Part shown: positions 7,778 to 36,132 of the stretch, in pieces | Position numbering within the stretch: the stretch's first letter is position 1 | Layout of the letters: each line of letters begins with the position of its first letter | Virus record (IMG/VR): IMGVR_UViG_3300033072_000473 | Location: 23,212-87,211 of that record | From: a virus | Taxonomy: Duplodnaviria; Caudoviricetes | Strand: one strand, 5' to 3' | DNA: 64,000 nt | Notes under the pieces: model-generated | What the model saw: the letters and a program-made list of their open reading frames with translations, nothing else | Database searches by the model: none | What the model was told of the DNA's origin: nothing | Position numbers and translations under genes: made by a program

Positions 7778-8244
7778 TAAACACCTGTGCTTCCAAATCC
7801 TGCGCTTCCGCGGTTAGTTTCATTAAGTTCGTCTTTTGTACTAACATTATGCCATTTGATAGTAGGTACCTGCTTTAGTACAATCTGTGCAATACGATCC
7901 CCATGTTGAATATTAATTTCATGCTCACCAATATTATCTACAATAATACAGATTTCCCCACGATAGTTACTATCAATAGTACCCGGAGAATTTGCCACAC
8001 GCATTTTAGTTTTTAAACTAAGCCCACTGCGTGGGCGCACTTGTAGTTCATAGCCAAACGGTAAAGCTACATATAATCCTGTTTTGATTGTAGTAGTTTC
8101 ACCCGGATATAGAAGCTTAGTTTCCAAAGACTTAATATCTAATCCGGCATCCCCATTTTTAGCATATTCAGGGTTATCAAACCCTGAATCGTTGAAGATG
8201 TCAACCTCTACTTGGTGCTTATAATCGTATCCAACAGTTCTCAT
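7777..8244 (-). CDS. dut: dUTPase
   Basis: AGLDI, RSGL, GTIDSNYRGE, RIAQ, RGSAGFGSTG motifs. Confidence 0.95.
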   Translation of the reverse strand: MRTVGYDYKHQVEVDIFNDSGFDNPEYAKNGDAGLDIKSLETKLLYPGETTTIKTGLYVALPFGYELQVRPRSGLSLKTKMRVANSPGTIDSNYRGEICIIVDNIGEHEINIQHGDRIAQIVLKQVPTIKWHNVSTKDELNETNRGSAGFGSTGV

Positions 8245-23069: not shown

Positions 23070-23342
23070 TTATCGCAACATAGAGGATAGTGGGACTACT
23101 GAAACTACTTGTGAGATTTCAATATTTTTGAAGTCGTCCAAGTCCCAGCAAAAGGCCCTGACCGTTCCAGGTTTAGGAACTGACATGGCCGGTCGTTGTG
23201 AGAGTTTGTCTGTGATATATTTGCAGTTATCCAGTTCAATGGTACAAATATGATATTTTTGCTTATTAGAGATAGGACTAACGTAATAAACGTATGCATC
23301 GCCTGCCTCATTCATTTTTTGCTTAAAAATATCAAAGTTCAT
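23070..23342 (-). CDS. Conserved T5-like hypothetical protein
   Basis: GDAYVYY...FCWDLD; synteny. Confidence 0.6.
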   Translation of the reverse strand: MNFDIFKQKMNEAGDAYVYYVSPISNKQKYHICTIELDNCKYITDKLSQRPAMSVPKPGTVRAFCWDLDDFKNIEISQVVSVVPLSSMLR

Positions 23343-29520: not shown

Positions 29521-29583
29521 CAGGATCGACCTTTTACAAGTCAGATTAGCAGTCTGGTGTATTTTATTTGCTGAAACGATCCT
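29521..29583 (-). ncRNA. CAGCAA-motif RNA, copy A (carries a Ser-GCU-type anticodon arm)
   Basis: AGGAUCG/CGAUCCU stem + UUUCAGCAA + CAGA-CUGCUAA-UCUG. Confidence 0.7.
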
Positions 29584-29593
29584 AAATAAGTAG

Positions 29594-29684
29594 TGGCGGG
29601 TCGAGAGAGAGTCGAACTCTCAAGGGCTTATTAGGCCTCGACTGTTTTCAAGACAGGTTCCATCGCCAATTGGATTGCCGACCC
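29594..29684 (-). tRNA. tRNA-Ser(UGA)
   Basis: Loop CT-TGA-AA; long variable arm; CCA. Confidence 0.92.
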
Positions 29685-29952: not shown

Positions 29953-30332
29953 TTACACTAATACTTTGCAGCGTTTAATACAGTTTTCAATTCTAGACCA
30001 TTGAACTTTTGTTAGGGCTGGATCAGAGCTTACAAATCTTTGTAAGTCATCTAGCGTGTCCTGTATTAGCTGAATTGCTTGAGTTTGAGGAATTTCTTGA
30101 AATTTCTTTTTAGCATGTTCCCAAGCTTCCTGCTCTAGCTCTTCTGCCCACGCTTTTTGTCCTGATCCCATTGTAGTTCTCTAAATTTAGAAATAAACGA
30201 ATGATATGCTACGTAGGGTGTAGTATGCACTAAAAACCATGCATAAAGTACTTGCTGTACTCTATGTTTAAGTGTTAGTGGATAAACGGTACGTAGAAAC
30301 TCTTTTTTGCTTTGAAACATAGTATTCTCCAT
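29953..30332 (-). other. Two small hypothetical CDSs (29953..30171; 30135..~30320)
   Basis: ORF track; SD GGAGA precedes ATG 30320. Confidence 0.55.
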
Positions 30333-30416
30333 CAGGATACTGTGCCTACCATTAGGCTTATCTCGCTAAGACGAAACAATGGAATCGAACCATTAAAAAT
30401 TTTGCTGAAAGTATCC
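30333..30416 (-). ncRNA. CAGCAA-motif RNA, copy B (YrlA-like permuted tRNA mimic)
   Basis: GGAUAC/GUAUCC stem + UUUCAGCAA, then T-arm, loop-closed acceptor-like stem, D-arm. Confidence 0.75.
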
Positions 30417-30422
30417 AAAAAT

Positions 30423-30540
30423 TGGCCCCGAAACTAGGATTCGAACCTAGAACCTCTCCATTACAAGTGGAAGTTAAAGATGCGGTAAATATTCTTACAG
30501 AATACTATTTTTAGCGCTCTACCGATTGAGCTATTTCGGG
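30423..30540 (-). tRNA. tRNA-Thr(UGU)-like gene with 42-nt insertion (30471..30512) at the 5' side of the anticodon stem
   Basis: Perfect acceptor, D and T arms and CCA; removing 42 nt restores CTCCA-CTTGTAA-TGGAG. Confidence 0.8.
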
Positions 30541-31277: not shown

Positions 31278-31346
31278 CTTTGAGGAGGATTGGCTAGCAA
31301 ATCAGTAAACTGACAGAAGGCTCTTTATCAATCATTGAAATAATAT

Positions 31347-31375
31347 TATATCAATGATTGAATAGGAAAACAAGT
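31347..31375 (-). promoter_or_regulatory. Sigma70 promoter; -10 flanked by inverted repeat TCAATCATTGA/TCAATGATTGA
   Basis: TTGTTT-17-TATAAT. Confidence 0.75.
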
Positions 31376-31422: not shown

Positions 31423-32838
31423 CTACAAACTATAACGATCGCTCATTACAGCTTTCAGCATAATTGCTTCAGGAGTAAATTCTTCTAAATCGCCACTAAG
31501 GACTGCCTTCATAATAGAAGGCGAGAATCCCGAAATAAGTGCCACGCCTTGTTGATTAAACTTAGCAGGAACATTATCATTGGCGTTTAGATTCCAAAAT
31601 ACAACTTTAGGCACTTGATAGCCAGCACGCTGATATTTGCTGGCAATCATTTGCATAGCATTATGGTCGTACTCAGCGCAATGATCGAACTGCATATCCG
31701 AAAGGATAAGCAAAATTTCAGGCATTTCGCTTTGTGGTACTTGATTTTTCACTGCTACACCCAGCACTTTATCAAAGGCCACATGTAGGTTAGTATTCAT
31801 ATTCCACAGAGATTTAACCATTTGTTGTGCACGCTGAACTACATCACCTTTGAGGCTAAGTAGTTCAGGAGTACCAGAGAAAGTAAGGAACAAATCCTTG
31901 AACTTACCCTGGTTCTTTTCACTAAGGTATAAGCCTAGTGAAACTGCAACATCCATGCAGGTAGTTGAACCTTTACTACCGGCTGCACAACTCATAGAGC
32001 CTGAAACATCTACCATCGGTAGAATACTTGCAGAACCTACGTAGTTTGGCAGCGCTTTCCACTGAGCTACAATCAAATCCTTTTGAGTTTGGTTATACTC
32101 AGCAGTATAATAAAGGTTAGCAACTCCCTTTAGCACGTCATAAGGGTAAACTGCACCAGCATTAACTTTTACAGTTTTATCGCCCTCTTTAAGTTTAGCT
32201 ACATATTCTGCGTACTTGGGAGTATTACGGAAAAATGCAGTCTTATAACGTGCATGTGCTAGACTAGGAACATGGGAGAAATTAATCTCTTCCCACTGCT
32301 TAGAGCACATTTGTTGTTCTACAACTTTAGTCAAATTGACTAGAGTTTTACGATAGAACTTTGGTGACCAACCAAGATACTGACGGAATTGTTCCGCCAC
32401 ACGGCCTTTACGTGGAGTCCACTTAGCCGCCAGACCGTTGCCTTCGGCAAGAGCTTGGCGCACTAGTTCGAACCCTACGTCTTGCATCTTAGGGGTTTGA
32501 AACGCAAACAAATCATCAAAGCGACCAAGGTCGGGAACCTTTTTAGCTAGACGAATTGCAGACTCCATATCATTCTTTTCCAGATATTGCAAAATATCAC
32601 GGAAAATCTGGCGTTCACCTACCCCTTGACGAATATCACGAACCCATTGTGCAATGCGTAGCGCAATATCCTTGTTCTCTACTAGAGCTGCGACAAAATC
32701 AGGAATAATATCCTTACCACGAGATGCACCAATCTTAAAGAAAAGATCAGTACAAGCATTTTCAGTTGCCTTAAATGCTTTCATCCCATTCTGGGTACGA
32801 ACTTCTTGATTTTGTACAGCTTGAGCAAAAGTAGTCAT
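31423..32838 (-). CDS. DUF2828-type protein: helical N-domain plus C-terminal vWA (Ro60/TROVE-like architecture)
   Basis: DLFFKIGASRG, WVRDIRQGVGER, AAKWTPR; MIDAS DVSGSM...TFS...TNL...LSDMQFD; VVFWNL. Confidence 0.8.
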   Translation of the reverse strand: MTTFAQAVQNQEVRTQNGMKAFKATENACTDLFFKIGASRGKDIIPDFVAALVENKDIALRIAQWVRDIRQGVGERQIFRDILQYLEKNDMESAIRLAKKVPDLGRFDDLFAFQTPKMQDVGFELVRQALAEGNGLAAKWTPRKGRVAEQFRQYLGWSPKFYRKTLVNLTKVVEQQMCSKQWEEINFSHVPSLAHARYKTAFFRNTPKYAEYVAKLKEGDKTVKVNAGAVYPYDVLKGVANLYYTAEYNQTQKDLIVAQWKALPNYVGSASILPMVDVSGSMSCAAGSKGSTTCMDVAVSLGLYLSEKNQGKFKDLFLTFSGTPELLSLKGDVVQRAQQMVKSLWNMNTNLHVAFDKVLGVAVKNQVPQSEMPEILLILSDMQFDHCAEYDHNAMQMIASKYQRAGYQVPKVVFWNLNANDNVPAKFNQQGVALISGFSPSIMKAVLSGDLEEFTPEAIMLKAVMSDRYSL

Positions 32839-32852
32839 TTTTTAAATATCTC

Positions 32853-32916
32853 CAGGTTAAGTTTTTGGTTTCTTGATAATTTGTAAGAAATTTCTGTTTA
32901 TTGCTGTAGTTAACCT
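32853..32916 (-). ncRNA. CAGCAA-motif RNA, copy D (abuts the SD of the DUF2828 gene)
   Basis: AGGUUAA/UUAACCU stem + CUACAGCAA. Confidence 0.7.
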
Positions 32917-32924
32917 AAAATCAA

Positions 32925-33053
32925 CGGGATGCTTTGTAACTGTTTATTAAACGAAAACCGTTACCCAAACGTTCGTCGACACCGATATCTATAAATAGAT
33001 ATCTGAAAGCCTCGACCATCTCCATAAGTGTATATGGTTGCTGAAGTCATCCC
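32925..33053 (-). ncRNA. CAGCAA-motif RNA, copy E
   Basis: GGGAUG/CAUCCC stem + CUUCAGCAA; internal hairpins GAUAUCUAU-UU-AUAGAUAUC and GUAAC...GUUAC. Confidence 0.7.
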
Positions 33054-35084: not shown

Positions 35085-35169
35085 AGTTTATGAATTCTTT
35101 TAATTAAACTCAGAAATAGTATTTTATAAGTTTAATTAAAGTAATTCAAGTTTATTTTTCTGTTACTAG

Positions 35170-35450
35170 GAAAATAAACAAACCCTAAGCAGTATTTAGG
35201 CTGCTAAAGCAAAGGTATTATCGTTTGCGTTTACTTTATTTGCTTTTTACGTCTACTCCTGACGTGTTGCCCTATCAACTATCTCACGCTGTCGAAACCA
35301 GGTCAGGCCCATCAAAAGCATACTAGGGAATCGAACCCCATTTCTAGAATAGTTCCAAACGACCAGAGCGACTGGCAGTATGCTTTTGGTGGACCTGGGC
35401 GGAATCGAACCGCCGTCCAACGCGCCTTTATATCAAAGGTTATACAACAA
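35170..35450 (-). ncRNA. ssrA: Circularly permuted (two-piece) tmRNA, tag ANDNTFALAA
   Basis: Acceptor piece (...GGCGGTTCGATTCCGCCCAGGTCCACCA, ends 35387) precedes coding piece (GGGCCTGACCTGGTTTCGAC, starts 35310); tag ORF 35228..35196; outer ends approximate. Confidence 0.92.
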
Positions 35451-35696
35451 TTACTTACAAGTAGCAAGCCACTTTCTGATTTCTTCTACAGTCTTAACAC
35501 CGCTAATAGAATGTTTACTAGGGAGATGTAGTAGTGTTGGTACTCCGCGGATCATATATTCATCTACAAGATCTGGGTGTACATCAATATCTACTACTTC
35601 TACATCAATACCTAAATCTGCACTTTCCAAGTTTTTGGCAAGTGCCTTACATGGTTGACACCAACTAGCAGTAAATCTGAGAACTTTTTCTTGCAT
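35451..35696 (-). CDS. Thioredoxin-like protein
   Basis: FTASWCQPCK, IRGVPT; SD GGAGA before ATG 35696. Confidence 0.9.
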   Translation of the reverse strand: MQEKVLRFTASWCQPCKALAKNLESADLGIDVEVVDIDVHPDLVDEYMIRGVPTLLHLPSKHSISGVKTVEEIRKWLATCK

Positions 35697-35811: not shown

Positions 35812-36132
35812 TGGTACCCGTGGCCGGAATCGAACCGGCATGCTTGCGCGAGGGATTTTAAGCGGTTATGTCCTAAAGTTTCCTAAAGGCCCGGACTATC
35901 TCTTTACCTTCAACACTACTTGTTAAGGTAGTGGGCGTTCTTGCTGGTTATTAAGAGGGCTAAACCTCTCCAGTAGTCTCTACACCTTCCAATACTGTAG
36001 TATTGGCTTGGCTCGCGATTGCCATTTTACAGACTCTCCCGAATTAACCCACAGTTTATCTAACTATTTCTAATTAGAGGGGACTATCAGTTTCTGCTGA
36101 TCCCTTGTGTCTTCCTATTTCACCACACGGGC
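35812..36132 (-). tRNA. tRNA-Leu(UAA) interrupted by a group I intron
   Basis: Exon 1 GCCCGTG...AGGGA(T); exon 2 CTTAAAATCCCT...ACCA. Confidence 0.88.
35863..36099 (-). mobile_element. Group I intron (~237 nt, no ORF)
   Basis: P7 elements GAGACUAC / GAUAGUCC, P1 GGGAU/GUCCC with U-G pair, P9 GAAA hairpin, terminal AUAACCG. Confidence 0.88.

Follow-up and report, generated by a model that had tools for sequence, protein, structure and literature searches.

Ro60-Y RNA particles are a classic, poorly understood RNA-surveillance system in which the terminal helix of the Y RNA is the docking site for Ro60, and the YrlA class of Y RNAs carries a transfer RNA (tRNA) mimic. YrlA Y RNAs with a tRNA-like layout accompany Ro60 in bacteria and in some mycobacteriophages (PMC4201824), and Thermus phage phiLo encodes a Ro60 together with the RNAs Yrl1 and Yrl2 (PMC12135203; PDB 9KOP, 9L5Y). 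A preprint (10.1101/2024.10.10.617714) reports that the protein gp130 of phage Bas63 resembles Ro60 in structure and acts against the ppl defence; its gene lies upstream of tRNA genes for which the authors suggest a possible identity as Y RNAs, the RNAs themselves not being identified there. Here we describe E2, an RNA element of 84 nucleotides (nt) in a 64,000-nt stretch of DNA (the window), which is part of an 87,211-nt uncultured virus record (IMG/VR record IMGVR_UViG_3300033072_000473, positions 23,212 to 87,211; Duplodnaviria, Caudoviricetes). E2 is a conserved RNA and not a chance fold, and it is co-oriented with, and within about 4 kb of, a gene for a 471-aa protein with a predicted Ro60 fold. 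Since the E2 family is encoded beside the gene for this Ro60-shaped protein, it is most likely that protein's partner RNA, and we infer for E2, as the likely reading, that it is expressed, bound and used as the Y-RNA-like partner of a divergent phage Ro60, with a tRNA mimic as part of it.

Read on the minus strand from 30416 to 30333, E2 consists of a terminal helix (the handle), a single-stranded motif, an A/U spacer, a T arm, an acceptor-like hairpin, an AA linker, a D arm and the returning strand of the helix, as follows.

30333..30416, minus strand: E2, the whole RNA of handle and permuted tRNA, 84 nt (model match including flanks, 30331-30420)
30410..30416, minus strand: handle 5' strand GGAUACU, pairing with 30335-30341 (sequence and RNAfold)
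30402..30409, minus strand: single-stranded motif UU-CAGCAA adjoining the handle, followed by the spacer AAUUUUU
30378..30394, minus strand: T arm AAUGG / UUCGAUU / CCAUU (RNAfold and model alignment)
30360..30377, minus strand: acceptor-like stem GUUUCGU/GCGAGAU with loop CUUA, followed by AA (30359-30378 with a 6-nt loop in the register of the first-pass annotation)
30344..30357, minus strand: D arm GCCU / AAUGGU / AGGC, including A14 and G18-G19, followed by AC
30335..30341, minus strand: handle 3' strand AGUAUCC, then the tail UGAU (30331-30334, of which E2 includes UG; family consensus UGUU)

The minimum free energy and centroid structures from RNAfold are both this four-way junction, at -24.6 kcal/mol. 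The acceptor hairpin stacks at the place of the acceptor stem, and the model alignment described below favours a T stem of 5 base pairs (bp) and an acceptor stem of 7 bp with a 4-nt loop, i.e. the canonical 12-bp stack. The first-pass annotation, made from the sequence of the window, had proposed a T stem of 4 bp and an acceptor stem UGUUUCG/CGAGAUA with a 6-nt loop; this is an equivalent register shifted by one base, and it is the longer T stem and shorter loop that the alignment prefers. In either register the acceptor loop (4-6 nt) has no discriminator or CCA. The anticodon arm is absent, 15 nt of single strand taking the place of the anticodon and variable region. E2 has neither the standard cloverleaf order with an anticodon arm nor open acceptor ends, its order being permuted, and neither ARAGORN nor the Rfam tRNA model (RF00005) calls it. 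Rfam as a whole gave nothing on E2 at gathering thresholds or at E<=10, and megablast of 8 kb against phage records returned tRNA fragments only.

Relatives of the neighbouring 471-aa protein served to fetch homologous loci, 3 + 80 from IMG/VR and 9 regions from the records of named phages. A strict descriptor was set to require a T loop, a T stem, a hairpin of 6-7 bp following immediately, a D arm containing GG and a closing helix that carries N3-CNGCA; 16 complete elements satisfy it on the gene strand, differing from one another in stem sequence, and 0 on the opposite strand. E2 is counted among the 16, with the limit that the script paired an upstream motif (E3, in the adjacent tRNA gene) instead of E2's own helix. 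A looser script for stem, N3 and CNGCA gave too many chance matches for use alone, and the strict descriptor and covariance models were used instead. Model R1, built from 5 descriptor elements, scores E2 with 44.1 bits, and model R2, built from 20 matches in other phages, with 53.2 bits (E 1.8e-7 over 843 kb), E2 having been left out of both. The initial R1 match, 30331-30498, fused E2 with the E3 motif; a local unfiltered search and R2 give 30331-30420. Model matches spanning the junctions of adjacent tRNAs (model positions 27-104) were disregarded.

The homologues argue strongly for the fold. Over 24 distinct homologous sequences, 95.9% of the pair cells hold standard pairs, as against 68% in shuffles and 35-50% with slid partners, and 23 of the 26 pairs show two-sided changes. 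Covariation of the closed acceptor stem was one of the two tests on which the first-pass annotation had staked its reading of a YrlA-like permuted tRNA core closed by the motif helix; all seven acceptor-hairpin pairs show two-sided changes, the stem being paired at 95.4% in the homologues, and together with the sequence, the RNAfold structure and the R1 and R2 scores this bears that reading out. The handle helix is paired at 99.3%, with two-sided changes in five of its six pairs, and in the T arm the core GGUUCGAnUCC is kept and the stem covaries. CAGCAA reaches a conservation of 90% or more in the alignment of the family. The tertiary pair 15:48 also covaries (G:C in 11, A:U in 7, U:A in 2, with 4 exceptions; A15:U48 in E2) and A14 is invariant. 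The elbow nucleotides and the 15:48 pair are thus kept, and a tRNA-like L shape is therefore expected, without an anticodon arm or CCA end. The anticodon arm is lacking also in the closest orthologues of E2 (locus L034, 1334-1423, and its copies).

The presumed partner is encoded on the same strand.

31423..32838, minus strand: gene for the 471-aa Ro60-fold protein (Pfam DUF2828 and DUF7788; MIDAS (metal ion-dependent adhesion site) motif DVSGSM), presumed partner of E2

An AlphaFold model made with a 111-sequence alignment predicts a ring of HEAT repeats and a C-terminal von Willebrand factor A domain with a MIDAS, i.e. a Ro60 fold; without an alignment the mean confidence (pLDDT) is only 40. 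The Ro60 of phiLo is among the top structural matches of the predicted protein, at about 15% identity. Homologues number more than 7,900 at E <= 1e-10, and phage records 711; a search of the protein Atlas returned viral DUF2828 clusters only and is uninformative on eukaryotic homologues. Among the loci of proteobacterial, cyanobacterial, firmicute and actinobacterial phages, the Ro-fold gene is the only neighbour seen in common.

E2 belongs to a family of such RNAs, whose consensus is UUUA-G, a 6-bp helix, NNN-CAGCAA, a cargo, often an A-rich run, and the 3' helix strand ending in C, followed by UGUU. The pattern GRWYNNYTWCMGCAW occurs five times in the window, with 0.28 occurrences expected. 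In 86 homologous loci R1 gives 354 matches at E<=1, and all 300 of those listed are on the gene strand. Many of these are mini elements of 55-68 nt, handle only, one of which stands almost always just 5' of the protein gene's start codon. Many E2-type relatives have two further parts before the T arm, an arm of 5 bp whose 7-nt loop reads CU-NNN-AA, and a variable loop of 4-5 nt; their handle emerges at the tRNA 26/27 junction, and E2 is the minimal version. Most have no CCA, and the copy of Cronobacter phage S13 has ACCA in the acceptor loop. The first-pass annotation had placed the helix where the anticodon stem would be; in many relatives the helix instead stands beside a complete anticodon arm, which E2 as the minimal form lacks.

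E2-type RNAs adjoin the gene in named phages as well. The one in Mycobacterium phage Jobypre scores 69.9 bits and follows, at a distance of about 100 nt, a gene with the annotation "Ro-like RNA binding protein"; others are found in Felixounavirus JH2, Bacillus phage PK-3, Synechococcus phage BUCT-ZZ01, Cronobacter S13 and Citrobacter Ci1; the phages of Listeria and Campylobacter have mini handles 5' of the gene. In whole-record searches of JH2, Jobypre and S13 the best matches are those beside the gene, and the same searches gave no such matches in T4 and T5, in which tRNA clusters are present. The RNA family was found in no Rfam family and in no paper, the literature search being of open-access text. 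Variants of the E2 type with the unusual T loops UGCAAUU or UGCAAAU and long insertions (136-207 nt in total) were seen at L008:6613-6748, L075:427-605 and L032:1171-1377.

Among the described systems YrlA is the closest in architecture. In E2, as in YrlA, a terminal helix leads to the T arm, the acceptor stem with its closing loop, a UA-type linker and the D arm before the helix returns. E2 also has conserved T-loop and D-loop nucleotides and a 15:48 pair that covaries as G:C or A:U, and it lies within a few kb of a Ro60-fold gene on the same strand. The features of the YrlA tRNA-like domain (T arm, closed acceptor, D arm, conserved loops, 15:48) are thus all present in E2. It differs in that NNN-CAGCAA beside a 6-7 bp end helix stands in place of the GNCGAA motif of YrlA, in that its presumed partner is a DUF2828/DUF7788 and not a Pfam TROVE protein, in its much smaller size (84 nt), and in the full anticodon arm of many of its relatives. 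The Infernal search with the Rfam YrlA model (RF02553) proposed in the first-pass annotation gave no match on E2 even at E<=10; the RF02553 rows in the region are junctions of adjacent tRNAs only (17-21 bits), and on the mycobacteriophage sibling in Jobypre the model reaches 39.3 bits, against a threshold of 69, over the tRNA-like part alone and with the Ro-stem columns mismatched. This is in line with the different Ro-binding signature that had been predicted. E2 would be YrlA-like in its working, yet it is not a member of RF02553.

With phiLo the window shares a phage-encoded Ro60-fold protein and small RNAs encoded beside its gene, whereas the description of Yrl1 and Yrl2 gives them a stem-bulge-stem form and a CGAA motif and mentions no tRNA-like module (PMC12135203). 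With permuted tRNA genes of the Cyanidioschyzon type and with two-piece transfer-messenger RNA (tmRNA), E2 shares an order in which T arm and acceptor 3' strand, making up the 3' half, come ahead of the 5' half with its acceptor 5' strand and D arm. Those genes, however, yield chargeable molecules with CCA and, in tRNAs, an anticodon arm, and E2 has neither; a complete anticodon arm and a discriminator, CCA or processing junction at the acceptor, as in a functional permuted tRNA, are absent from it.

Taken as a whole, E2 can be described as two modules. The constant one is the handle, a 6-7 bp end-joining helix starting with G, with NNN-CAGCAA on the 5' side and C-UGU/UGA on the 3' side, and it would dock on the Ro-like ring protein (DUF2828/DUF7788). 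The handle is the most likely docking site because the family is encoded beside, and co-oriented with, the Ro60-fold gene, and the terminal helix of Y RNA offers the comparison. The other module is a variable cargo, which in E2 is a circularly permuted tRNA body, the T arm stacked on the closed acceptor stem, plus the D arm. Such a ribonucleoprotein particle (RNP) would present a tRNA look-alike that cannot be charged, and the tRNA body may tether the Ro-like ring to enzymes that recognise tRNA. Another possible role is that of decoy or sensor in conflicts of tRNA damage and defence.

The immediate surroundings of E2 and its siblings in the window are listed here.

30426..30540, minus strand: tRNA-Thr(UGU)-like gene, complete in its four arms and CCA, immediately upstream of E2 (Rfam tRNA, 49 bits)
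Inside 30426..30540, minus strand: E3, the handle in hairpin (permuted) form, AGUAUUC-UGUAA-GAAUAUU-UA-CCGCAU (pattern match)
30242..30266, minus strand: terminator-like hairpin and U run, about 70 nt after E2 (consensus scan only)
29521..29583, minus strand: E1, sibling mini RNA with handle GGAUCG-UUU-CAGCAA ... CGAUCC-UG (R1 35.7 bits; R2 36.2 bits)
32855..32915, minus strand: E4, sibling mini RNA whose end lies 16 nt 5' of the Ro-like start codon (R1 23.6 bits)
32926..33053, minus strand: E5, sibling RNA with handle GGGAUG-ACUU-CAGCAA ... CAUCCC, directly 3' of tRNA-Met (R2 28.2 bits)

Besides a permuted tmRNA the window holds about 25 tRNA genes, and nearly all of these RNA genes lie on the minus strand. 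E2 starts 6 nt past the CCA of the tRNA-Thr-like gene, which ARAGORN does not call and which has a 42-nt insert between D arm and anticodon arm, a block of 55 nt in place of 13 by the Rfam tRNA model. The hairpin at 30242..30266 is possibly the end of the tRNA/E2 transcription unit. Upstream of E2 another terminator-like hairpin was found by the consensus scan 3' of the Ro-like gene, and a promoter-like TTG...TATAAT box near 31340-31370 was spotted by eye, the promoter scan not listing it. From its place after the tRNA-Thr-like gene, the flanking terminator-like hairpins and the promoter-like box, E2 looks like the last gene of a tRNA operon. An open reading frame of 65 aa starting right after E2 (30135-30332, minus strand) is probably non-coding, because no Shine-Dalgarno-like sequence was seen before its ATG and the terminator-like hairpin 30242-30266 is internal to it.

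Further observations concern the same RNAs and their neighbours. A mini handle stands about 10-70 nt before the DUF2828 start codon in most of loci L007-L086 (e.g. L031:4931-4990; 32855-32915 in the window), and its role may be that of a partner RNA transcribed together with the gene or of a leader for autoregulation. E1 starts 11 nt after a class-II tRNA-Ser(UGA)-like gene (29598-29684, minus strand), which ARAGORN missed and which has a sub-threshold Rfam tRNA-Sec match of 41.7 bits. Long tRNAs resembling the tRNA-Thr-like gene of the window are present in Cronobacter S13 (L006:7896-8016 and 8026-8138, annotated tRNA-Ser and tRNA-OTHER) and in Citrobacter Ci1 (L005:8012-8125, annotated pseudo-tRNA, and an unannotated one just upstream, about 7890-8010), and they carry CAAACU-GAYA-AGUUUG-UAUU-CAGCAY. 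In the same two phages the E2-type RNA is followed by an RNA-like stretch of about 280 nt (L006:8300-8590 and L005:8290-8560, respectively), in which GCUCGU at the 5' end pairs with an ACGAGC that stands just past a T arm and runs on into GCCA; it matches no Rfam family at threshold and looks like a tmRNA-like or long tRNA-ended RNA. The tmRNA gene of the window is itself circularly permuted in two pieces (35142-35502, minus strand; tag ANDNTFALAA; Rfam tmRNA_permuted, 139.6 bits). A group I intron (35872-36099, minus strand, within about 35850-36132; Rfam, 59.6 bits) appears to lie inside a tRNA-like gene starting near 36132 and is reminiscent of the cyanobacterial tRNA-Leu intron.

Several observations weigh against E2 as a Ro60 partner with a tRNA-like body. 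As far as we found, the RNA family, E2 included, is known from sequence alone. Pfam TROVE gives no match on the 471-aa protein, whose link to Ro60 is by predicted structure only, and neither phmmer nor a hidden Markov model profile against PDB sequences gave a Ro60 match; the first-pass proposal of a phage Y-RNA analogue gains from the predicted fold of the neighbouring gene, and for binding to that protein the argument is co-location only. At the tRNA U8 position E2 carries A, not U. The alignment behind the pair counts was one that had been fitted to the model. Given an unfitted MAFFT alignment, RNAalifold found the handle, the T arm and the D arm again, with compensation in 12 of 15 pairs; it missed the acceptor hairpin, because hairpin lengths vary, and likewise the anticodon arm. 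The support for the acceptor hairpin is then the descriptor scan. The folding z-score of E2 as a single sequence is modest (-2.1), 7 of 200 shuffles folding equally well. This score and the silence of ARAGORN and Rfam are what might be said for E2 as the remains of a decayed tRNA, or as a fold arisen by chance in an AT-rich spacer. The models score it at 44-53 bits, however, every helix shows compensatory changes, and other phages have anticodon-less orthologues (e.g. L034:1334-1423), so that there is next to no room for either. That E2 could be a circularly permuted tRNA gene whose product becomes a chargeable tRNA, either cleaved in the acceptor loop like a two-piece tmRNA or circularised like the permuted tRNAs of Cyanidioschyzon, is very improbable: the 3' half does precede the 5' half, the phage also encodes a permuted tmRNA, and there are relatives with a full anticodon arm and 7-nt CU-NNN-AA loop as well as the S13 copy with ACCA in its acceptor loop, yet E2 has no anticodon arm, its acceptor loop of 4-6 nt has no discriminator or CCA, most relatives are likewise without CCA, and no bulge-helix-bulge junction is apparent.

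Two other explanations deserve more attention, although we regard both as unlikely. E2 could be a cis-acting processing element which guides cleavage of a tRNA/mRNA transcript by RNase P, RNase Z or RNase E, or an operator of the Ro-like mRNA, with no RNP acting in trans. Its position between the last tRNA and a terminator-like hairpin would suit this, and so would the family habit of abutting a tRNA CCA end or a stop codon, with one element directly 5' of the Ro-like start codon. Such an element has no need for a conserved single-stranded CAGCAA, a 3' CUGU, a 15:48 pair or several copies per genome, and it would be left unexplained why these RNAs are so tightly linked to a single protein family in phages of four host phyla and why T4 and T5 are without them. 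Handle RNAs co-locate with tRNA genes too, and therefore another protein could bind the handle. On this account, to which we give slightly less weight still, the binder would be some other phage or host protein, for example an RNA-recognition-motif (RRM) protein such as Rnp1A, and the Ro-like gene a mere neighbour in the tRNA region. The RRM protein Rnp1A does bind a Dictyostelium Class I RNA directly (PMC7919456), and in the phages the binding of handle and protein is inferred from co-location; against this, the Ro-fold gene is the one neighbour that the loci of four host phyla were seen to share, and homologues of the Ro-fold protein are known Y-RNA binders. The Y-RNA-like partner of a divergent phage Ro60 remains the explanation that we prefer for E2.

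A further comparison is with the Class I RNAs of dictyostelids (Rfam RF01414; PMC7919456), which like the phage handle have a 5' G, a short covarying end helix with CCUUACAGCAA directly after its 5' strand, a variable middle and a 3' CUGU. Class I sequences given in the supplement read GTTGAC-CTTACAGCAA...GTCAAC-TG (PMC7919456). E2 has the same layout of 5' G, end helix, 11-nt motif of the CCUUACAGCAA type and 3' CUGU, reading G-GAUAC, ACUUUCAGCAA, ...GUAUC-CUG, and its ACUUUCAGCAA agrees with 9 of the 11 Class I motif positions. RF01414 itself gave no match on E2, and on the sibling E4 it gave 21 bits, below the threshold of 41.5, with bounds identical to those of E4. We know of no Ro-like partner for the Class I RNAs. 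They are eukaryotic, 42-65 nt long, polymerase-transcribed from a promoter with the Dictyostelium upstream sequence element (DUSE), reported as unique to Dictyostelia, and their cargo is unstructured or a hairpin (PMC7919456), whereas E2 has 84 nt, comes from a phage record and carries a tRNA-like cargo. It is tempting to speculate, though doubtful on balance, that the helix-CAGCAA-CUGU handle is the same module in both, that both are Y-RNA-type partners of a Ro60-like protein of the DUF2828 class, and that one ancient RNP is present in phages of at least four bacterial phyla and in eukaryotes.

The relatives of the neighbouring protein form a second, much larger phage lineage of proteins with a predicted Ro60 fold, and this lineage has its own RNA family. 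The handle of these RNAs differs from that of YrlA, but in their cargo they have either kept the permuted tRNA body that YrlA has or converged on it. To this family E2 adds a minimal, anticodon-less member, together with the evidence of covariation and of a tertiary pair. The partnership is testable in named cultured phages (Felix O1 types, Cronobacter S13 and the Mycobacterium cluster-L phages), and if Bas63 gp130 belongs to the DUF2828 family there would also be a link to an anti-defence phenotype, that against ppl. A DUF2828-class protein would in addition be a candidate class of partner for the orphan Class I RNAs of Dictyostelium. Should the ancient RNP prove to be shared, members of the E2 type would show that tRNA mimicry, as in YrlA, recurs as the cargo of Ro-class RNPs, and its use here would probably lie in conflicts over the cleavage and repair of tRNA.
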